Shown here: positions 2,013 through 10,735 of the stretch, in pieces
How positions within the stretch are numbered: the first letter of the stretch is position 1
How the letters are laid out: each line of letters starts with the position of its first letter
Origin: Candidatus Caldarchaeum sp.
GTDB lineage: Archaea > Thermoproteota > Nitrososphaeria_A > Caldarchaeales > Caldarchaeaceae
Direction: 5' to 3'
Assembly: GCA_038844785.1 (NCBI GenBank)
Contig: JAWBRA010000004.1
Span: 1,496 to 65,495, forward strand
Length of the DNA stretch: 64,000 nt
Made by a program: the position numbers and the translations under genes
The notes under the pieces: model-generated
The model's input: the letters and a program-made list of their open reading frames with translations, nothing else
The model's database searches: none
What the model was told of the DNA's origin: nothing

Positions 2013-3125
2013 ATGTATAAAGGCGGCCGCAAAGCTGTGAGCACAGTCATAGCCGCGATGATAGTAACGGGGGTTTTGCTGGCGTTGTTCAGCGGCCTCT
2101 TATCCGTTCAAACCCGCTTACATCAGGCCGAGGTTGAAGCCGTCAGAAGAGAGGCTGAGAGAGCGATGGAAGCACCGTTCCAAATATACTGGATAAACAG
2201 CACGCATGTGAGGCTCTTTAACAACCACAGCAGCGTACCAGTTATTCTAAGGTTTTGGATAACTTCAGGTGCAACGGTTTCGGTGACAAGCCTAGACCCA
2301 TCCATTTATTCGGTCGGGCCTGGAACGTTCAAAGATGTGAAGGCCGCCGACCTGCCGCGGGTAGTTAACAAGGTTTACAAAGTTGTTTCCGAGAGGGGGA
2401 GCGTTTTCGTCGTGGGTGACATGCCGTCTGAACCCTTCTCCCTCTTCAAGATGTTAGTAAGCGAAAAGCAGGTCAGGCCTGGTTTCACAAGCTCCTCTCA
2501 AGGACCGTTGACAAGCATATTGCTCGGAACCGGGCCAGAGTTCGGTGGAGGGCAGGTAAGCCTTTCATGCGTCTCAGCCTTCCCACCACCAGCATCATGC
2601 GTAGGATGGAGTATCTCGTTCAACCCATCAAGCCCTGTGTATGTTCCGTCGGGTGGAGCCTTGGTAGTAAACGTGCTGGGGAACATACCTGTCGGAACAC
2701 CTTCAGGAACATACTTCATCCGCCTCCGCGCCGACACGGGGGGTTTTGTGAAAGAGTTTCTGCTACAGGTGATGGTGGGAGATTTTACCTTCGCTGTAAA
2801 CCCCGGCTCGATTACTATAGGACGGGGTTGCGCCGGATCGGTGACTCTGTCAATAACGCCGACAAACTATGGAGAATCCATCTCCTTCAGAGTGCTCTCC
2901 GTGACTCCTGCCGACGCCAGGTTTCATTTCGCGTTCACGGCAAACCCGCTCGACCTAAGCCACGGTCAATCAAGCACAAGCCTGTTGATTTACATCAATT
3001 TCGCGACACCTAACACGGCTGTAACTAGAACGGTAGTTGTGCAGGCCTACGACGGCTTAGGTCCTTCAAAAACTGCTTCGATAACCGTAACGGTGAACCC
3101 CAGGTCTGCTACTGGAAACTGTTAG
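2013..3125 (+). CDS. large pilin-like protein with archaeal class III (type IV prepilin-like) signal peptide
   Basis: N-terminus MYKGGRKA|VSTVIAAMIVTGVLLALFSG: basic patch, Ala cleavage context, then an about 20-aa hydrophobic helix. The rest is Ser/Thr/Gly/Val-rich beta-type sequence. Confidence 0.6.
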   Translation: MYKGGRKAVSTVIAAMIVTGVLLALFSGLLSVQTRLHQAEVEAVRREAERAMEAPFQIYWINSTHVRLFNNHSSVPVILRFWITSGATVSVTSLDPSIYSVGPGTFKDVKAADLPRVVNKVYKVVSERGSVFVVGDMPSEPFSLFKMLVSEKQVRPGFTSSSQGPLTSILLGTGPEFGGGQVSLSCVSAFPPPASCVGWSISFNPSSPVYVPSGGALVVNVLGNIPVGTPSGTYFIRLRADTGGFVKEFLLQVMVGDFTFAVNPGSITIGRGCAGSVTLSITPTNYGESISFRVLSVTPADARFHFAFTANPLDLSHGQSSTSLLIYINFATPNTAVTRTVVVQAYDGLGPSKTASITVTVNPRSATGNC

Positions 3126-3228
3126 GATGGCCAAAGTAGTACCAGTCCACTATCACCGTAAAAAAAGTACAGTATATCCAAAAACCGCTCGACTCAAACT
3201 CATATACCAGAAATGCCGACCCCTCGCC

Positions 3229-3672
3229 ATGAAGGGTCGGTCTTCGGTTGGGTTAAGCCCTCTGGTTGCTGTGATACTGTTGATAGCCATAACGGTCGCT
3301 GCAGCGGTGGTGGTGGCAGGCGTTTTCTTCAACCTCAGCAGCATAGCCGGCAGAAGGCCGACAGCAATCATCGACCAGATAAAGCTCGTCGCGACCCCTG
3401 CTGGAGCAGGAACGTGGGCGGTTGTCATCAAAAACACAGGCGACGTGAGAATTACAGGCCTCTCTACTCCTACGTTCCCCGATGGATGCTCGGCGGCCGC
3501 CGGATGGACCTGGAACCCCTCAACAAACGTTAACCCCGGCGCGACCACCGCCGGCACTGGTAGCGCGTCTGGATGTACGCTAGGAAACACCTACCGTATA
3601 TCAATAACAGTGACCTTCCAAGACGGTTCAACACAGGTTTTGGCAACGGCGGTAACAGCATCAATAGCCTAA
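3229..3672 (+). CDS. archaeal type IV pilin / archaellin-like protein (class III signal peptide)
   Basis: MKGRSSVGLSPLVAVILLIAITVAAAVVVAG matches the archaellin/pilin N-terminal consensus. The listed ORF begins at 3127, but the internal Met at 3229 gives the canonical prepilin N-terminus. Confidence 0.6.
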   Translation: MKGRSSVGLSPLVAVILLIAITVAAAVVVAGVFFNLSSIAGRRPTAIIDQIKLVATPAGAGTWAVVIKNTGDVRITGLSTPTFPDGCSAAAGWTWNPSTNVNPGATTAGTGSASGCTLGNTYRISITVTFQDGSTQVLATAVTASIA

Positions 3673-3716
3673 ACCCATAAACATTTTTTAAAATAAACCT
3701 GCAAAGACTTAAAAAG

Positions 3717-3724
3717 GTTATAAA
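3717..3724 (+). promoter_or_regulatory. TATA box (TTATAAAT) with A-rich BRE-like upstream, about 27 nt before ATG 3747
   Basis: aaaaaggttataaatcat motif in the 75-bp intergenic region. Confidence 0.45.
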
Positions 3725-3746
3725 TCATTCCACACCCAGACGACGG

Positions 3747-4151
3747 ATGGCTGTGAAAACCGGTGGAATCAGCTACGTAGCCGGAGTCCTCCTCGTCCTA
3801 GCCGTAACCGTCTCGACCATAGCCCTTTACACTACGGTGGTGGGATTCCAGTCCCAAACCATCCTCAGCCTCTCAGCCCTCGACATACGCAGAGCAAGCG
3901 AAAGCCTCATTATCGTCGAATACCACAGACCAACCAACACTTTAGTAGTCTACAACAACGGGCTCATCCCGACATGCTTCGTCGAAATAACCGTCGCCGG
4001 AATGGGCGTGGTGTACAGCAACCCATCCTGCACCCCAATCCCACCAAATCAAGCCACAACCCTAACCCTAGCACTTATAAACCCGCCACAAACACTCACA
4101 CTAATAGCCAGAACAATCCACAACAAAATACTCACATACACAATCAGCTAA
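3747..4151 (+). CDS. small pilin-like protein (class III signal peptide) with Thr/Pro/Asn-rich C-terminal low-complexity tail
   Basis: MAVKTGG|ISYVAGVLLVLAVTVSTIAL N-terminus; third consecutive prepilin-like gene. Confidence 0.55.
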   Translation: MAVKTGGISYVAGVLLVLAVTVSTIALYTTVVGFQSQTILSLSALDIRRASESLIIVEYHRPTNTLVVYNNGLIPTCFVEITVAGMGVVYSNPSCTPIPPNQATTLTLALINPPQTLTLIARTIHNKILTYTIS

Positions 4152-4201: not shown

Positions 4202-5128
4202 TTGGCGGCAAAGACAAAGAAAGAAATACTCAAACTCCTCAAAGAAGACGAAGAATTCCGATACGCAGTAGCAGGACTCATAGGGCTGGAGGAAACCCTG
4301 AGAAGACTGGACAAACTCGACCAAAGAATGACAGAACTCCACGAACAACAGGTAAAACTCTGGGAGGAACTCAGAACCCTGAGAGAGGGCCAGGAAAAAC
4401 TCTGGGAGGAGGTCAGAAGCCTAAGAGAGGGCGAGCACAGGCTTTGGGAGGAGGTGAAAAGCCTTAGAGAGGGTCAGGAAAAGCTTTGGGAAAACCAAGG
4501 CAAGCTATGGGAGGAGGTCAAAAGCCTAAGGGAAGGGCAGGAGAAGCTGTGGGAAACCCAAAGCAAACTCTGGGAGGAGGTTAAGAGCCTTAGAGAAGGT
4601 CAGGAAAAGCTTTGGGAGAATCAAAGCAAGCTATGGGAGGAGGTCAGAAGCCTTAGAGAAGGGCAGAACAGGCTGGAGGAATCCATGATCCGCCTTCAAG
4701 ACGCCGTTACACTGCTGACTCAGGCTCACAGGGAGTTGGCGAAACAGGTTGGCGCCCTCTCCGAAACCGTTGGCTTCGGGCTTGAGGACATAGCTAAAGT
4801 CGTTGTTCCTGGCTGGCTCCAAAGGCATGAGGGAATAGTGATGGCGGAGGAGTTCGTCCGCAGATGGATAACGGTGGACGGGGAGGAGATAGAGGTAAAC
4901 CTTTACGGCGAAGGGGTGAAAAACGGCCGGAAACTAGTCATCGTCGGCGAGGCCAAGTCGAGGATATACAAGCGTGAGGTTGAGGCATTTGACGCATGGG
5001 CTGAGAAGGTATCTGCGAGCGTCGGCGGGGAAGTGTACAAGTTCATGTTCGGATACCTCATACATCCGTCAGCCGAGGAAGAGGGAAGGAGAAGAAAAAT
5101 AACGCTAATAGCGTCCTACATGCGTTGA
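4202..5128 (+). CDS. coiled-coil protein with about 9 tandem 14-aa repeats (KLWEEVKSLREGQE) and a C-terminal putative PD-(D/E)xK nuclease-like domain
   Basis: DNA-level 42-bp (and 21-bp half) repeats at about 4350-4680 with synonymous variation. C-terminus has ITVDGEEIEVNLYGEG...KLVIVGEAKSR, a D...E-x-K pattern in beta-strand context. Confidence 0.55.
   Translation: MAAKTKKEILKLLKEDEEFRYAVAGLIGLEETLRRLDKLDQRMTELHEQQVKLWEELRTLREGQEKLWEEVRSLREGEHRLWEEVKSLREGQEKLWENQGKLWEEVKSLREGQEKLWETQSKLWEEVKSLREGQEKLWENQSKLWEEVRSLREGQNRLEESMIRLQDAVTLLTQAHRELAKQVGALSETVGFGLEDIAKVVVPGWLQRHEGIVMAEEFVRRWITVDGEEIEVNLYGEGVKNGRKLVIVGEAKSRIYKREVEAFDAWAEKVSASVGGEVYKFMFGYLIHPSAEEEGRRRKITLIASYMR
4350..4680 (+). repeat. 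in-frame 42-bp tandem repeat array (about 9 units) inside CDS 4202..5128
   Basis: Repeated gggaggaggt(c/t)a(a/g)aagcct(a/t)agaga(a/g)gg(c/t)cag... units visible by eye. Confidence 0.7.
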
Positions 5129-5203: not shown

Positions 5204-5751
5204 GGGACTGTCAACTTAAGGTCTATGGCCTGGGTCTTTCTATTCGTTGGGGTGGATAGAGTTGGGGTTGGCCTAGGCCGTCTTATAGGTTTCTTCGGTG
5301 ATAGGAATGTTTTTCCCCGTCTCAGGACGTCTCCGTGGGTTTAGGGCTGTCGGCGTTAGGCTATATGTCGAGGGGCTCAGGAGGGTAGCTGGGATGTTAT
5401 GCGAGCTAGGGTTTCAGGTAAGCCTTGAGTCTGTCAGGGGTTGGTTCCATATCTCGTCAGGAGGGCCTATGTATGGGCTGATAGCCGAGTGTATAAGGTT
5501 TCTTGAGGTGGTTAGGGTTAGGTACGCTAGTAACCCTGCCGTCTACAGGGATAGAGTTCCATGGTATGGATGGCCTATGAAGGTTCTGGGCTTGAGGAGG
5601 GTGGAGACGTTCGGCAGGAGGAACACGATAGAGTCATGGTTCAGCGGGCTGAAGAGGAGGATAAAACAGTTCAACACGTGCTCCCCAACATACAGGCCGA
5701 AGGTACCGGAGAAGTGGATAAAGGCATGGGTGTCATTAAGTTGACAGTCCC
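5204..5751. mobile_element. IS6-family insertion sequence derivative (internally deleted, about 548 bp) with perfect 16-bp terminal inverted repeats GGGACTGTCAACTTAA and 8-bp target-site duplication CTAAACCT (5196-5203 and 5752-5759)
   Basis: TIRs at 5204-5219 and 5736-5751 are exact reverse complements. The flanking 8-bp direct repeat matches IS6-family TSD length. The internal ORF has an IS6-like HTH and C-terminal N-x-IE-x7-KRR motif but lacks the DD catalytic core. Confidence 0.65.
5298..5744 (+). pseudogene. truncated IS6-family transposase (N-terminal HTH plus C-terminal E-motif region; central DDE segment missing)
   Basis: GMLCELGFQVSLESVRGWFH resembles the IS26 Tnp HTH. RRNTIESWFSGLKRRIKQFN resembles NNxIExxHxxxKRR. 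Length is 148 aa against about 230 aa for intact IS6 transposases. Confidence 0.5.
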
Positions 5752-6056
5752 CTAAACCTCGTCGCCAAACTGAAGGCTACCTCACCCTTGGCCACAGCCC
5801 GTCTCACATACCTGATGTGGATAGAAACACCTAAGGCCAGAACAAAGACTTCAACCGCTAAGCCCAGCGATATGTTGAGGAAAAACGTGAGGGGAACCAG
5901 CAGAATGATTGAAACGATTGCTTCACCGGGGTTTTCGACGGTGTTCACATATCTTCTCCGTCTTTGACTCTCCAGCGCGGTCGACGGTCCAAAATCTTTC
6001 TCGAGCTCCTCCACCATCCCAAAACCGCTCTCTAAATCTGCCCAAAAAGGCGAAAC
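5736..6056 (-). pseudogene. partial paralogous copy of the FlaJ/TadC-like membrane-protein gene (equivalent to about residues 120-250 of the 6156..7544 product), truncated by the IS insertion
   Basis: Translation ...WADLESGFGMVEELEKDFG...RRRRYVNTVENPGEAIVSIILLVPL... aligns with ...GEDLESGFGVVEKVEKYLE...WRRYVDTVETLGEAIVSIILLVPL... of the intact gene. DNA similarity is visible (5913-6060 vs 7046-7190). The stop codon is supplied by the IS terminal repeat. Confidence 0.55.
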
Positions 6057-6155: not shown

Positions 6156-7544
6156 CTAGACAAAGAGCGAAGCTATTGAGTAGGCGACGAGCGTGGCTAT
6201 TACTCCTGCACCAGCCCTCCAGACGGCTGCAACAGTCTGGTCTTCGGTCTTGGAAACCGCCACCCCCAGACTGAAGGAAACTATGAGTGCGTTTGGCAGT
6301 ATGGGTTCAAGGGACGGCGTTATGACAAGCTTTTGAACCTCACTTGAGACTTCAGGCGGTAGTGACGTGAACGGCATGATTGCGAAGCTTGAAACGGCTA
6401 TGATTGCCGCGCCGCTTGCGATGGCTAACGCGTCGTAAAGCTTCATCCTTGCTCTTGCGTTGGTGAAGCTAAGGTAGATTGTTATGGCTAGTCGGGCCAT
6501 CAGGCTAAGAGCTTCCGCGCCCAACCCGCCTAAACGAGCCAGCTTGACGGTTTCGATGGACATTCTCATGAACCGGTTCAACGGCTTTACTTCAATACCT
6601 CTCACGATAGCCTTTGCGTACCTAGCGTAGCGCGGGTCGGCAACCATCTCCAAGCTCTTGCCCACAGGGTACCCCGCCCTAAGCCGTGCCGCCACGCTGT
6701 CGAGAAGCAGGAAGGAAGACTCTCCTTCTGAAACACAACGCCTGATATATCGAAAGTGTACGAACAATCCCCAGCCCAGAAGGAGAAGACCGATGGCGGG
6801 CGGAATCATCACCAACGACGTGTTGAGAAAGAACATGAACAAAAATGCTCCAGACACGGCTATGAGAGCTGTTGAGGTGTAGACAATTATGCGTGGGATG
6901 TCAACCAGATGCATAGGCTCGCTTGCAGACGCAATAGTATAGAAGACCGCCGCAGCACCCACTGAAATGAACACGGAATAAAAGGGGGGGAAACCTCCCA
7001 ATATGCCGCCCACGACGTACATCAAAGGAACCAGTAGTATGATTGAGACGATTGCTTCTCCGAGAGTTTCGACGGTGTCGACATACCTTCTCCATCTCTC
7101 GCTCTCCCTCGATATAGATTGTTCCAAATACTTCTCAACTTTTTCCACGACTCCGAATCCGCTCTCCAAATCCTCTCCTAGGGAACCTATCAACAGAGAG
7201 AACTCGCGGCTCGGATGAACGTATTTCTTGAAGCTCTCAGCCAGAGTTGTTTTTTCCCCGACTCTTCTCAGATAACCCGCCTCATGTGAGAGCTTGGCGA
7301 TTATTTCTCGCTTATGCGCCGCCTCCGTCAAAGCATGCAGCACCGTCTTGCCGCTTCTCAAGATGATGTACAGTATCGCAAGAAAATACGTCTGCTCCCT
7401 CTCGGCCGCGGCCTTTTTCTCAGAGTCTGAAATCCTCCGTCGAAGCAAAAGAACCGCTACGGCGAATGATACAATCGATATATGAGGCCAGTAGCTGGAC
7501 ATGAAGCTGAGCAAAAAACGACCTATCGCTTGGGTTTCAAGCAT
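6156..7544 (-). CDS. FlaJ/TadC/PilC-family polytopic membrane protein (type II secretion system F-domain), pilus assembly platform
   Basis: 462 aa with multiple TM helices and two cytoplasmic helical domains. Sits in an operon with the PilB/FlaI-like ATPase. Confidence 0.65.
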   Translation of the reverse strand: MLETQAIGRFLLSFMSSYWPHISIVSFAVAVLLLRRRISDSEKKAAAEREQTYFLAILYIILRSGKTVLHALTEAAHKREIIAKLSHEAGYLRRVGEKTTLAESFKKYVHPSREFSLLIGSLGEDLESGFGVVEKVEKYLEQSISRESERWRRYVDTVETLGEAIVSIILLVPLMYVVGGILGGFPPFYSVFISVGAAAVFYTIASASEPMHLVDIPRIIVYTSTALIAVSGAFLFMFFLNTSLVMIPPAIGLLLLGWGLFVHFRYIRRCVSEGESSFLLLDSVAARLRAGYPVGKSLEMVADPRYARYAKAIVRGIEVKPLNRFMRMSIETVKLARLGGLGAEALSLMARLAITIYLSFTNARARMKLYDALAIASGAAIIAVSSFAIMPFTSLPPEVSSEVQKLVITPSLEPILPNALIVSFSLGVAVSKTEDQTVAAVWRAGAGVIATLVAYSIASLFV

Positions 7545-7555
7545 GACGCCAGCAC

Positions 7556-8503
7556 CTAAATCTTCTCTACCTCTATGCCGAATGTCTCACCTGTTTTAAA
7601 CGCGTTATCCTCCACGTCCGCTCCAGCGATGAACCATCGAACGCGGCCCACAACACCTTGGATGGCTGTCTTCTCGATGTCAAACCTTTTGACCGTCCAC
7701 GAGACTATGTCAAGTGAGGTAACCCTGTACTTGACTGTGTATATCCTTGTCTCAGACTTCTCGCCGCTTATTGCTACAATGTCGAGGAGGTGTTTGGTTC
7801 CGCTTATGCCGATAACTTCAACTTTCTCCCTTACTTCAAACCCCTCTGAGATGAGTTTTCTGATGAGTATCTTCAAAGGGTTGGCTGACTCTATCAGGCT
7901 AAGACCTTGGTCGGTCAGCTCGTATTCTCTGAGAATCATCTGGTCAGCATTTTTTAGTTCGTCGAACCATTCGCATGAAAGACATTCAGCAAGGTAAAGA
8001 GGTTCTGTGAAGATGTTTCCGCACGTGTTGCAGACAAACCTGAAGCCCGCGGTGTTTAAGCTTTTTTCAAGGGTATCTCTACACTTGGGACATACGTCCA
8101 AAGTTTTGACGACGTTTTCAGGTATTACCGCACCGCAGCTATGCATAAAGATGAGAGATTTTGTGATGTCTTCAGACCTGCACGACGTGCAAGCTGTCCG
8201 CGGGTTGAGAAGCGCGCCGCTACATTTAGGGCATCTTAATAGTTTTCTCGAAAACTTTGACCTGAGAAGGTTGTTGTTAACAAGGAAGTCAAGTCTTTCC
8301 ACAAGTTGTTGAACTGACGTGTTTGCTGGCAAATCAGACGAGAGCCTGACCTCGTTAAAAGGCTGGATGACTTCGAAAAAAGTATATGGTTTTCCCTGCC
8401 TAAACATCTCGGCAACACGCATGAGGATCGCAAAATCCTCGGGCTTTAAGCTACTCTGCGACAACTTCCTCCCATCTTCGCTGTTGGTCAACTGCTTTTG
8501 CAA
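7556..8503 (-). CDS. winged-helix-like N-domain plus double zinc-ribbon (CPKC..CTSC, CPKC..CNTC, CLSC) protein of unknown function embedded in the pilus operon
   Basis: Cys pairs in the translation. N-terminal helical HTH-like segment. Lies between the ATPase and the membrane-protein genes. Start may be the internal Met at 8422, which removes the 53-nt overlap. Confidence 0.45.
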   Translation of the reverse strand: MQKQLTNSEDGRKLSQSSLKPEDFAILMRVAEMFRQGKPYTFFEVIQPFNEVRLSSDLPANTSVQQLVERLDFLVNNNLLRSKFSRKLLRCPKCSGALLNPRTACTSCRSEDITKSLIFMHSCGAVIPENVVKTLDVCPKCRDTLEKSLNTAGFRFVCNTCGNIFTEPLYLAECLSCEWFDELKNADQMILREYELTDQGLSLIESANPLKILIRKLISEGFEVREKVEVIGISGTKHLLDIVAISGEKSETRIYTVKYRVTSLDIVSWTVKRFDIEKTAIQGVVGRVRWFIAGADVEDNAFKTGETFGIEVEKI

Positions 8504-10022
8504 GTTCCTCCGCCCTCATTTTAGCATTTTGCTCAAGAAGTTTTTCAATGATGGCAACATTCAACTCGTATCTTCTTCTCAGCTTTGCATCGTTTACAAG
8601 CGTTGGGGAGTTCAAGGCCAGCTGTCGCCGGTTCTCGGGGAAAAATCTATTCAGCGACTGGTCGTACCATGATATTAAATGCTCCTTGCCGACTTTCTCG
8701 ATCTCCCAAACACCTATGACTCTTCTGCCTCTAGGAGTTCCTCTTATCAACACAACGACGTCAAGGAAGCTGAGTTCTTCAGGTAACACGCCCATGCTGA
8801 CCGACGTTAGCCTCTGGTAGACATCTTCGAGGCCTTCGGCATGTATTGTCGAGGCCATGCCATGGCCTGTTGCGGCCGCGGAAAACATGACCCTAGCCTC
8901 TAATCCTCTAACCTCGCCCACAACCGTGTAGTCGGGTCTATGTCTTAGGCTGAGTCGCAGTATGTCGGCGAGGCTGTAGGCTGTTTCGCCGAGTGTTCTT
9001 CGGGTAACGAACCTGTGCCAGTTTTTGTGCCAAGAAAGATTGATCTCTGGATGATAGTCCTCGAGCGTGAGGATTTTGGCGTTGAAGGGTAGGAGCTGGA
9101 GCATGGCGGACAGGAACGTGGTTTTCCCACTTCCCGTCGGCCCAGCCACGATTACGAACTTCTTCGCCTCCAGCATCGTCCAGATGTATGCCGCAGTTAT
9201 TGGGTTGACTGTTCCGTTTCTGATGAGGTCTAAGATTGTGTAGGGCGATCGTGGAAACTTGCGGATGGTTATTGTGCTGGCGCCGGGTGTAAGCTCTCCT
9301 GCATATGTTAATGCAATCCTGTCGCCGTCATGTGTCATAACCTCGGCTGAAGGCTTTGCGATGCTCAGCTCGGCACCGTTCCTCTCAGCAAGAAGCCTCA
9401 CCTGCTTGTCCAGCTCCTCAGCCGTGAACTCGATGTTCGTCTCAATCCAAAGCAGGTCGGGATGTCTTCTGTGTATCACATAGGCTGGCCCAGGCTTGGT
9501 CACGGTTATGTCTTCCAGCTCCTCGTCACGTATCAAAGGCTCAAGCTTCCAGCTGCCCTTCAAATCCTTGACAACATGATATGTAACAGTTTTGAGCTCT
9601 ACTTCATCAAGCTCCAGGTCCTTGAGAATCTTTGAAGGCTCAACACCCTTCTTCACGTAGGCCTCCTCTATCTCGGCGACAATCCGCGCCAGTCTTTCGT
9701 CCAGAGCCGGTTCCTCCACAACGTATTTCACAGACCCATCCTTTTCAATTATCTTCACACTTAGGATTTCATCCACAGTATAATGTTCGATTACAGTTGG
9801 TTCAACGGTCTCTTGAGCAGGATGTGTTTCCTCCTCCTTTTGCATGGGTTTACGACGTCTTCGAAGAAAAGCAAAAGTTACTAAGACGGCTGCTCCTACG
9901 GGTGCAGCAACTATGGATGCGTTTAAGGGACTGGAGAGGATGAAACTGATAAAAATCAGGAATAGGGAAGTCACGATAGCGGCTACCTGTGATAGCGAGG
10001 AGAGCAGCTGCTCTAAGAACAT
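8451..10022 (-). CDS. type II/IV secretion-system ATPase (PilB/FlaI/VirB11/GspE family) with N-terminal hydrophobic extension
   Basis: Walker A VIVAGPTGSGKTTFLSAML, Walker B/His box region, and typical N-terminal domain. The first about 55 aa contain two hydrophobic segments. A TATA element 30 nt upstream supports the 10022 start. Confidence 0.8.
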   Translation of the reverse strand: MFLEQLLSSLSQVAAIVTSLFLIFISFILSSPLNASIVAAPVGAAVLVTFAFLRRRRKPMQKEEETHPAQETVEPTVIEHYTVDEILSVKIIEKDGSVKYVVEEPALDERLARIVAEIEEAYVKKGVEPSKILKDLELDEVELKTVTYHVVKDLKGSWKLEPLIRDEELEDITVTKPGPAYVIHRRHPDLLWIETNIEFTAEELDKQVRLLAERNGAELSIAKPSAEVMTHDGDRIALTYAGELTPGASTITIRKFPRSPYTILDLIRNGTVNPITAAYIWTMLEAKKFVIVAGPTGSGKTTFLSAMLQLLPFNAKILTLEDYHPEINLSWHKNWHRFVTRRTLGETAYSLADILRLSLRHRPDYTVVGEVRGLEARVMFSAAATGHGMASTIHAEGLEDVYQRLTSVSMGVLPEELSFLDVVVLIRGTPRGRRVIGVWEIEKVGKEHLISWYDQSLNRFFPENRRQLALNSPTLVNDAKLRRRYELNVAIIEKLLEQNAKMRAEELAKAVDQQRRWEEVVAE

Positions 10023-10144: not shown

Positions 10145-10165
10145 CACGTGTTGTTGTGGTGGGTG

Positions 10166-10735
10166 ATGCCAACAACCAGCTTCTCGTCAAGAGTTGAGGC
10201 GGCGCTGGCTGCGGTTGAGCAGGGTGTTGAGCCTGAGAAAGTTGTTAGAGAACTGTCTTGGAAGGAGATGGAGGAGTTAGTCTCCGCCGGCTGCAGCCGT
10301 GCCGGCTTCAAATGCGTCAGGGACCTGCGTCTTAGCTTTGGAGGTAAACGTATCCAAGCAGATGTGGTCGCTGCAACGCCAAGCCTTTGTCTTGTCATAG
10401 ATTGTAAGAGATGGAGGAAAAGTTTGTCGGGGCAGGTTCTCAGCACGACAGTTATCAAATCCGTTGAAAGGACTAAGATTGTGGCTGACTTTTTGGGCAG
10501 CCAGTACCCGGGGGAATGCTTGGTGTTCTTCGCTCCTTTGATGATATCGCTCTACGAGCCTGACAAACGCATTGTGGCGGGTGTGTTCGTTCTTTCGGTT
10601 AACGCTTTGACCGGTCTTCTCAGAAACTCCGAGAATTTGCTTGCAGGGACGACGATAGTGAAAAAGCTCAGCCCCCGCTGGCTGGGATTTTTCGAAAGCT
10701 ACAACTTAAATCAAAGCAGGTTGAAAAAGGTTTAG
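10166..10735 (+). CDS. hypothetical protein with putative PD-(D/E)xK nuclease-like core (ADVVA...LVIDCKRW)
   Basis: ORF translation; the D...(D)xK motif arrangement is only suggestive. Confidence 0.35.
   Translation: MPTTSFSSRVEAALAAVEQGVEPEKVVRELSWKEMEELVSAGCSRAGFKCVRDLRLSFGGKRIQADVVAATPSLCLVIDCKRWRKSLSGQVLSTTVIKSVERTKIVADFLGSQYPGECLVFFAPLMISLYEPDKRIVAGVFVLSVNALTGLLRNSENLLAGTTIVKKLSPRWLGFFESYNLNQSRLKKV

Follow-up and report, generated by a model that had tools for sequence, protein, structure and literature searches.

A repeat protein of Candidatus Caldarchaeum as a probable DUF8196 member with a coiled-coil stalk that varies by whole heptads and a PD-(D/E)xK-fold head

The DNA considered here is a 64-kb stretch of Candidatus Caldarchaeum sp. 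(GCA_038844785.1, contig JAWBRA010000004.1, positions 1,496-65,495 of the forward strand), which in its entirety is termed the window. Beside a type IV pilus locus, it carries a gene for a protein that combines three modules: a strongly conserved N-terminal helix module of about 45 amino acids (aa), a coiled-coil stalk containing a tandem repeat array, and a head of about 115 aa that is attached through a Gly-rich hinge (Table 1). An earlier sequence-only reading of this DNA had placed the open reading frame (ORF) at the same coordinates, which agree with the ORF list and with the conservation of the TTG start codon. This start is credible, because the syntenic orthologue L007, from a Candidatus Caldarchaeum metagenome-assembled genome (MAG) and 93% identical, retains both the TTG and a near-identical upstream stretch of 40 nt, and because the N-termini of homologous proteins align to it and share the opening motif M-x-A-x-hK-K/R-E-hL-K-LL. 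Purifying selection is indicated by the codons outside of the repeat, where the window gene and its L007 orthologue show 24 synonymous versus 11 non-synonymous differences. The protein has no signal peptide or transmembrane segment, and a search for a paralogue elsewhere in the 64-kb window found none. A scan for sigma-70 promoters and terminators was set aside as uninformative for an archaeon.

Table 1. Coordinates of the stalk gene, its parts and the neighbouring features within the window, with the basis of each assignment
Feature	Position	Strand	Description	Basis
Complete gene	4202..5128	+	308 aa plus stop, TTG start	ORF list; start of orthologue L007; 106 homologues
Conserved N-terminal module	4202..4345	+	aa 1-48, KEILKLLKEDEEFRYAVAGLIGLEETLRRLD...	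Identity to a DUF3782+PDDEXK_10 protein; PADLOC C3a181 match
Continuous heptad coiled-coil stalk	4286..4759	+	aa ~29-186	Translation read in heptads; AlphaFold2 helix
Tandem array	4355..4672	+	6 x 14 aa + 3 x 7 aa (15 heptads, 105 aa)	Tandem Repeats Finder; unit table
Hinge between stalk and head	4760..4780	+	aa 187-193, SETVGFG	Low predicted local distance difference test (pLDDT); G191 invariant
C-terminal PD-(D/E)xK-fold head, DUF8196-type	4781..5125	+	aa 194-308	
Motif I candidates	4784..4789	+	E195-D196, start of helix alpha-1	Each 80/80; align to conserved EE of PDDEXK_10-type helix
Motif II region	4892..4900	+	E231-V-N233, strand beta-2	N233 at canonical motif-II Asp position
Motif III	4949..4957	+	E250-A-K252, strand beta-3	Aligns with EV(K/S) of PDDEXK_10-type domain
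Three co-oriented pilin-like genes	2013..4151	+	370, 181 and 134 aa	Class-III-signal-like N-termini; Pilin_N match for the 181-aa protein
148-aa ORF	5298..5744	+	Probable mobile-element remnant	Related fragments in other Caldarchaeum contigs
93-aa ORF	5736..6017	-	Remnant copy of the T2SSF-like gene	Similarity to the adjacent T2SSF-like protein
T2SSF-like membrane protein, TackOD1 protein and T2SSE ATPase	6156..10022	-	Convergent with the stalk gene	Pfam matches
TackOD1-domain protein	7556..8503	-	Between the T2SSF-like and T2SSE genes	E 3e-18
195-aa ORF	10148..10735	+	Possible second PD-(D/E)xK-like protein	Sub-threshold Mrr_cat and NERD matches

Between the N-terminal module and the hinge, the protein is a continuous canonical coiled coil of approximately 22 heptads. 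In a full-length AlphaFold2 model built with an alignment of 80 sequences (mean pLDDT 90.3), a short helix at aa 3-15 is followed by a single uninterrupted helix at aa 17-189, modelled at pLDDT >90, while aa 184-192 at the hinge fall to pLDDT <50. In the same alignment G191 is present in 80/80 sequences, with F192 and G193 in 75/80 each. A heptad reading of the translation shows perfect phasing throughout residues 49-160, and all d positions between aa 53 and aa 186 are Leu, with V/L alternating with Gln at the a positions and Trp or Arg at the e positions. Given that coiled coils rise by about 0.15 nm per residue, the stalk would measure roughly 23 nm, if it is canonical throughout. Sequence searches of the PDB, whether performed with the single sequence, a full-length profile, or a head-only profile, yielded nothing beyond designed or GCN4 coiled coils and insignificant matches. 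The coiled-coil matches of the full protein in Pfam and NCBIfam (DUF1664, SMC, Rad50, LegC2/C7 and others) were rejected as compositional and far under the cut-offs.

The repeat array is the sole tandem repeat of the window. It contains six full units of the form (K/R)LWEE(V/L)(K/R)(S/T)LREG(Q/E)(E/H/N), starting at aa 52, 66, 80, 101, 122, and 143, as well as three half-units, KLWE(N/T)Q(G/S), starting at aa 94, 115, and 136. The sequence-only reading had counted about nine tandem 14-aa repeats, a number that the unit table contradicts; nine is the number of 'LWE' heptads. Tandem Repeats Finder (TRF) resolves two periods, one of 42 bp (4349-4491; 3.4 copies at 81% matches) and one of 63 bp (4441-4666; 3.6 copies at 82% matches), both free of indels, and it is the latter, corresponding to 21 aa, that represents the higher-order repeat unit. 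The abundance of synonymous differences among the units, which had been noted previously, is evident from the unit comparison: the units at aa 101 and 122 encode an identical peptide and differ at 8/42 nt, all of them synonymous, and all unit pairs summed yield 71 synonymous versus 38 non-synonymous codon differences.

The head is modelled with helices at aa 194-210, 257-274, and 289-297 and strands at aa 219-225, 228-240, 243-251, 277-284, and 301-304, and when modelled alone it reaches a pLDDT of 89.6 and a predicted template modelling score of 0.83. This a-b-b-b-a-b-a-b topology, together with a remote homology to PDDEXK_10-type heads, agrees with the earlier proposal of a coiled coil fused to a nuclease-like fold. 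As for the residues themselves, their conservation was counted in the 80-sequence alignment of relatives. E250 is Glu in 79/80 sequences, K252 is Lys in 74/80 and Arg in the other 6/80, S253 is kept in 73/80, R254 in 80/80, and E231 in 73/80. Also invariant or nearly so are R208, R220, L234, Y235, G236, G238, G249, H288, and P289. Position 233, which corresponds to the canonical motif-II Asp, is Asn in 69/80 relatives and Asp in 11/80, with nothing else found there. Relative to the usual signature of the PD-(D/E)xK superfamily, the acidic residue of motif I and motif III are thus present and the motif-II Asp is absent. The Asp...Glu-x-Lys arrangement that had been read from the C-terminal strings, which are indeed present in the protein, consequently stands in its Glu-x-Lys part, E250-A-K252, but not in its Asp, since the candidate D226 is found in just 58/80 relatives.

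The head also provides the link to a catalogued family. A search with aa 160-308 recovered 106 proteins, each belonging to an archaeal MAG or an unnamed metagenome sequence, beginning with Caldarchaeum at 81-95% identity and continuing through Thermoproteota, Bathyarchaeia, Sulfolobales, Hadarchaeia, and Asgard archaea. Many of these homologues carry a precomputed PF26618 label, one is named 'DUF8196 domain-containing protein' in UniRef, and those with the label are 50-67% identical over the whole head. A Pfam scan of the head itself gave 0 matches, as the Pfam copy that was scanned holds no PF26618 model; the labelled homologues likewise lacked a PF26618 match there. Searching 1.84 billion representatives with a head-only profile yielded 882 clusters (50% identity) at E<=1e-3, of which 567 reached E<=1e-10, and in these hits the DUF8196-type domain was always C-terminal, with total protein lengths of up to 337 aa. 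In GTDB species genomes, a relative is encoded at 161 loci, distributed across numerous archaeal lineages and also bacteria, the latter at about 50% identity and including Anaerolineae, Dehalococcoidia, Desulfarculaceae, Aerophobetes, Clostridia, Moorellaceae, and WOR-3, and some genomes contain two or three copies.

A second link leads from the N-terminal module to the family formed by DUF3782 and PDDEXK_10. When the neighbours of the fetched loci were clustered, the commonest one (8 loci) was a coiled-coil protein with the same N-terminal motif as the window protein. One such neighbouring paralogue, L018|6543, matches DUF3782 (E 9e-26) and PDDEXK_10 (E 3e-20), and its first 76 aa are 54% identical to the window protein (E 7e-17). 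The heads of the two families align by hhalign as well (90.6%, E 1.3e-6, 103 columns) with the motifs in register, as EIEVN(233) falls on EVEID and GEAK(252) on EV(K/S) of the PDDEXK_10-type domain. Direct comparison of the window protein with PF12644 and PF07788 gave no match at E<=1 for the full length or at E<=10 for the head. PDDEXK_10, then named DUF1626 (PF07788, COG5493), was assigned to the PD-(D/E)xK superfamily by Knizewski et al. in 2007, who described an N-terminal coiled coil, an a-b-b-b-a-b-a-b topology, and an unknown function (PMC1913061). Steczkiewicz et al. (2012) likewise considered its function unknown and found a patchy distribution suggestive of horizontal gene transfer (HGT) (PMC3424549), while the structural study of Hartmann et al. 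(2016) dealt with trimeric coiled-coil stalks of DUF3782 members, termed a 'family of prokaryotic endonucleases' (PMC4786415). The view that the window protein could not be assigned to a known family is therefore no longer tenable, as its homologues carry PF26618/DUF8196 and both its N-terminal module and its head connect it to DUF3782/PDDEXK_10 (COG5493).

The paralogues themselves exhibit several further peculiarities. A second stalked PD-(D/E)xK protein is encoded within 1-2 kb of the DUF8196 gene at L004, L011, L017, L018, L033, L044, L046, and L081. It is often of the DUF3782+PDDEXK_10 type and arranged divergently or in tandem, and the stalk repeats differ within each pair. We considered hetero-oligomers of such neighbours held together by matched stalks and set this idea aside, since the pairs differ in both stalk repeats and stalk lengths. 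At two Aigarchaeota-type loci (L017, 4649..5344, minus strand; L033, 2984..3637, minus strand), the paralogues combine KLWEEVRSLREGQE-type stalk repeats and an N-terminal module like those of the window protein with different heads, for which Pfam gives nothing significant, the one match being weak (E 0.24), a combination suggestive of swapped heads or exchanged stalks between paralogues. The matches obtained with the N-terminal module (52 aa) as query were limited to fragments and short ORFs (32-91 aa), the majority of DUF3782 type, which precluded a census of head types. Many of these (P0250-P0315) consist of the N-terminal module and a few heptads, and some are located on megabase contigs (P0257, P0262). 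Such ORFs could be truncated sister-family pseudogenes or else genuine mini-proteins without a head.

A further feature of the family is the manner in which its stalk varies in length. Comparing repeat numbers among related strains had been proposed as a check in the sequence-only reading, and such a comparison reveals that copy number does vary: among Caldarchaeum relatives, LW(E/Q) heptads number 1 in P0003, 2 in P0005, and 4 in P0002, and rise to 7 in L007 and L009, 9 in the window protein and L011, and 10 in L008. The 287-aa L007 orthologue is shorter than the window protein by exactly 21 aa, i.e. by one 63-bp unit. Other lineages amplify quite different units of 14 or 21 residues, such as ELAEAQKRTEERVE and KLTESLSTLTQRIDRLEQSHI. 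Self-identity of at least 40% at some period was detected in 45/182 N-terminal regions of the family (those of at least 60 aa), and in each case the period is divisible by 7. A similar rule governs how far the head motif G(F/Y)G(L/I)ED lies from the N-terminal motif. Proteins with an EDEEFRYAV-type N-terminal module have a distance of 1 mod 7 in 45/46 cases despite 14 distinct lengths between 64 and 176, the window protein having the longest, and those with a second type of module have a distance of 3 mod 7 in 28/29 cases, with 13 distinct lengths between 73 and 206. At 180 aa, the N-terminal region of the window protein belongs to the top 4% of a family with a median of 105 aa. An approximately three-fold variation in length that proceeds in whole heptads only fits a continuous coiled coil in which N-terminal module and head are held in fixed phase. 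Stalk units are gained and lost as whole-heptad blocks of 42, 21, or 63 bp, with selection preserving the heptad pattern, and it is for this reason that close relatives carry anywhere from 1 to 10 'LWE' heptads. Separately, we observed that the contig ends inside the region coding for the coiled coil at 13/86 loci (L001, L010, L025, L029, L041, L045, L047, L056, L060, L062, L067, L077, and L085). Stalk repeats thus often break short-read assemblies, and database lengths will consequently under-represent long stalks.

Taking these features together, we regard the window protein as a likely cytoplasmic member of DUF8196, a branch of the stalk-plus-PD-(D/E)xK-head proteins typified by DUF3782/PDDEXK_10 (COG5493). 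Several inferences can be made regarding how such a protein might operate. PD-(D/E)xK enzymes generally act as dimers, and the DUF3782-family stalks studied by Hartmann et al. were trimeric, which leads us to infer that the chains would form a parallel homo-oligomer, either a dimer or a trimer, with its two or three heads gathered at one end and the N-terminal modules at the opposite one. The stalk would then serve as a rigid spacer of adjustable length, the conserved N-terminal module could provide the end for oligomerisation or partner binding, and the head would presumably bind nucleic acid, and possibly cleave it, in a pocket lined by E195/D196, E231, N233, and E250-x-K252. The most likely cellular role is the processing of DNA or RNA in genome conflict or repair, as opposed to pilus biogenesis. 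A number of points weigh against this interpretation. Assignment to DUF8196 relies upon the precomputed labels of homologues at about 60% identity, and the sister-family side of the hhalign comparison consisted of just four aligned sequences. In the window protein and in 86% of its relatives, Asn replaces the canonical motif-II Asp. Were the dimer antiparallel, its heads would lie at opposite ends. Furthermore, searches of the literature found no experimental function for any member of DUF8196 or DUF3782/PDDEXK_10, and with no effector-head match in PADLOC and no viral or plasmid match, a role in genome conflict is without direct support.

The most serious alternative is that the head is a catalytically dead PD-(D/E)xK domain and that the protein functions as a nucleic-acid-binding or tethering scaffold, or else as an adaptor for another enzyme. 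We consider this a plausible scenario, albeit not the favored one. Inactive restriction-endonuclease (REase) folds are common, and in classical PD-(D/E)xK enzymes an Asp-to-Asn change in motif II usually abolishes cleavage. With N233 situated at precisely this position, a fully canonical catalytic triad is lacking and catalysis is uncertain; in addition, a distant family member has a sub-threshold match (E 0.036) to NA-iREase3, a Pfam family of 'inactive restriction endonucleases'. However, E195, D196, E231, E250, and K252 are all invariant or nearly so, which exceeds what binding alone would usually require, and 14% of the relatives keep the Asp in an otherwise identical pocket, suggesting that Asn and Asp are interchangeable within a single function. 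Judging from the strand geometry, E231, which lies two residues upstream on the same strand as N233, should point to the same side as that residue and could supply the missing carboxylate. Given the additional conserved Glu and the Asn/Asp interchange, the head may be a working nuclease or an inactive one with about equal probability.

Another possibility is that the protein is an effector of antiviral or anti-plasmid defence, perhaps acting as an accessory to type III CRISPR-Cas. We view this as unlikely, though several observations favor it. The PADLOC model C3a181 (PDLC01085) matches the window protein with E 6e-19, and L018|6543 matches the same model with E 1e-28, its best stretch alone covering positions 79-225 of 226. 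C3a181 is in fact a model of the DUF3782+PDDEXK_10 sister family, and its label of 'Diadenylate cyclase', which misfits the domains found, appears to be a carried-over misannotation. This sister family has been listed as a candidate type III CRISPR-associated gene by Shah et al. in 2018 (PMC6546367), and Anantharaman et al. reported it in operons with HEPN and MNT in 2013 (PMC3710099). Among the loci in our own set, MNT/HEPN-like neighbours occur at four. A defence function would also be in keeping with the patchy spread of the family over archaea and bacteria at about 50% identity, the two or three copies in some genomes, and the clustering of paralogues. Despite this, C3a181 was a weak candidate, with a low score, an association of 3 loci, and the 'diadenylate cyclase' label already attached (PMC6546367). 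In the window protein, its match is confined to profile positions 4-109, i.e. to the N-terminal module and stalk, and excludes the head, which has no PADLOC match. The 64-kb window is free of CRISPR arrays, the ten neighbours that were scanned include no cas-like gene, and no partner gene is conserved across loci. Relatives were likewise absent from viral contigs and plasmids, as determined by a scan of IMG/VR and a tblastn search of PLSDB; PHROGs gave nothing significant, and the BFVD search for viral folds produced generic PD-(D/E)xK matches only, with none at E<=1e-3.

The genomic surroundings of the window gene raise the further question of whether it works as a part of the neighbouring type IV pilus locus, for instance in processing DNA that is taken up or exchanged via the pilus. 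The gene is co-oriented with the three pilin-like genes directly upstream, from which it is separated by 50 bp, and L007, L012 (archaeon HR01), and L013 (Ca. C. subterraneum) retain its position between the pilin genes and the convergent T2SSF/TackOD1/T2SSE genes, at head identities of 93-70% (tblastn, aa 180-308). The convergent pilus-assembly genes themselves are syntenic in L002/L012, L007, and L013. A bacterial locus, L050, has pilin-like neighbours as well, and there is a parallel in the Ups pilus operon of Sulfolobus, which is flanked by nuclease and helicase genes. Nevertheless, synteny among close relatives can be simple inheritance, the protein lacks a signal peptide or transmembrane segment, and pilin-like neighbours occur at just 5/84 loci, 4 of which belong to one syntenic block. 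The other Caldarchaeum copies (L001, which lies beside a nos cluster, L008, L009, and L011) and all of the distant relatives examined reside in unrelated contexts, and genomic context is not conserved across phyla. The pilus linkage is thus lineage-specific, being limited to some Caldarchaeales, and it should be viewed as a lead and not as evidence of function. Overall, we consider a pilus function improbable. More speculative still is a scenario in which the Caldarchaeales recruited the protein into a type IV pilus operon as a length-tunable 'ruler' nuclease acting on DNA exchanged or taken up through the pilus, with rapid whole-heptad changes adjusting the reach of the heads, and in which the family of roughly 880 clusters might constitute an unrecognised conflict system with selected stalk lengths; we would give this little credence. 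As for the idea that the array is a product of recent slippage or an assembly artefact with no selected function, the frequency with which the repeats break assemblies and the differing copy numbers of close relatives would be in its favor, but we regard it as highly improbable because the units are just 81-82% identical in DNA without indels, units with identical protein sequence differ by synonymous changes only, reading frame and heptad phase are intact across 15 heptads, and the heptad quantisation of length is seen family-wide.

Several other features of the neighbourhood deserve mention in their own right. Downstream, where an insertion sequence (IS) had been postulated, lies a 148-aa ORF with no Pfam match. 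Related fragments are present in L008 (59% over 70 aa), L010, L017, and L001, while the syntenic loci L007, L012, and L013 have none. Because such fragments recur in other Caldarchaeum contigs, the ORF has the appearance of a repeated remnant, probably of a mobile element that inserted at this site. Hence, the placement of the gene next to an IS and a pilus locus can be retained with respect to the pilus, given the Pilin_N, T2SSF, TackOD1, and T2SSE matches, but with respect to the IS only as a probable remnant, and neither adjacency is a trait of the family. The adjacent T2SSF-like gene has left a remnant copy in the 93-aa ORF that follows, with 58% identity over 52 aa (residues 132-183) and 42% for residues 238-290 of the T2SSF-like protein, and a similar remnant is found at the same place in L007. 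HR01 and Ca. C. subterraneum both conserve the gene for the TackOD1-domain protein. The 195-aa ORF, which borders the pilus locus on its opposite side next to the ATPase gene, has sub-threshold matches to Mrr_cat (E 5e-4) and NERD (E 1e-3) and is conserved in L007 at 68% identity; its product is possibly a second PD-(D/E)xK-like protein.

Returning to the interpretation of the window protein as a DUF8196 member, its significance is primarily one of clarification. What seemed to be an unassignable repeat protein belongs to a large catalogued family, the combination of coiled coil and REase domain was already published in 2007, and the window gene is a further member of this functionally uncharacterised group. 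The new elements are the repeat-number variation among Caldarchaeum relatives and the family-wide heptad quantisation of stalk length, of which the latter implies that N-terminal module and head stand in a fixed rotational relation to one another. It is also now evident that the N-terminal module is common to families with different heads, that most DUF8196 members have undergone a switch from Asp to Asn in motif II, and that embedding within a pilus operon is specific to one lineage. By themselves, the fast-changing, heptad-quantised stalk and the motif-II Asn reveal no new mechanism, yet both offer handles for a first biochemical characterization.

Among known systems, the C-terminal nuclease domain of NucS/EndoMS (PDB 2vld, 5gke) resembles the head at the level of the fold only, with 11% sequence identity. 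NucS possesses an N-terminal beta-barrel for DNA binding and dimerisation, contains no coiled coil, and has the canonical motif-II Asp. The window protein has no NucS_C match and its N-terminal part is a coiled coil, so it does not share the NucS architecture. Another known system comprises Tcar0761 and other head-less DUF3782 coiled coils (PDB 5apz), which are likewise repeat-built prokaryotic stalks from the same wider family; indeed, a family profile that included the window stalk matched GCN4-fusion constructs of such coiled coils in the PDB. Tcar0761 lacks a nuclease head and forms trimeric alpha/beta coiled coils from nonad MATKDDIAN repeats, in contrast to the canonical heptads and attached head of the window protein (PMC4786415). 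The closest counterparts are the DUF3782+PDDEXK_10 proteins of thermophilic archaea and bacteria (PF12644+PF07788, COG5493, formerly DUF1626), which share the N-terminal module, a repeat-rich coiled coil, and a C-terminal head of the same a-b-b-b-a-b-a-b topology, as modelled here. The distinctions between the two concern both head and stalk. In motif II, the window protein has Asn in place of an Asp that is invariant in the four aligned sister-family neighbours, while in motif III it keeps the Lys that is often Thr or Ser in DUF1626 (PMC1913061). Its stalk is purely heptad, whereas crenarchaeal DUF3782 proteins are reported to include beta-layer nonads (PMC4786415). Regardless of these differences, both families exhibit the same patchy, HGT-like distribution.

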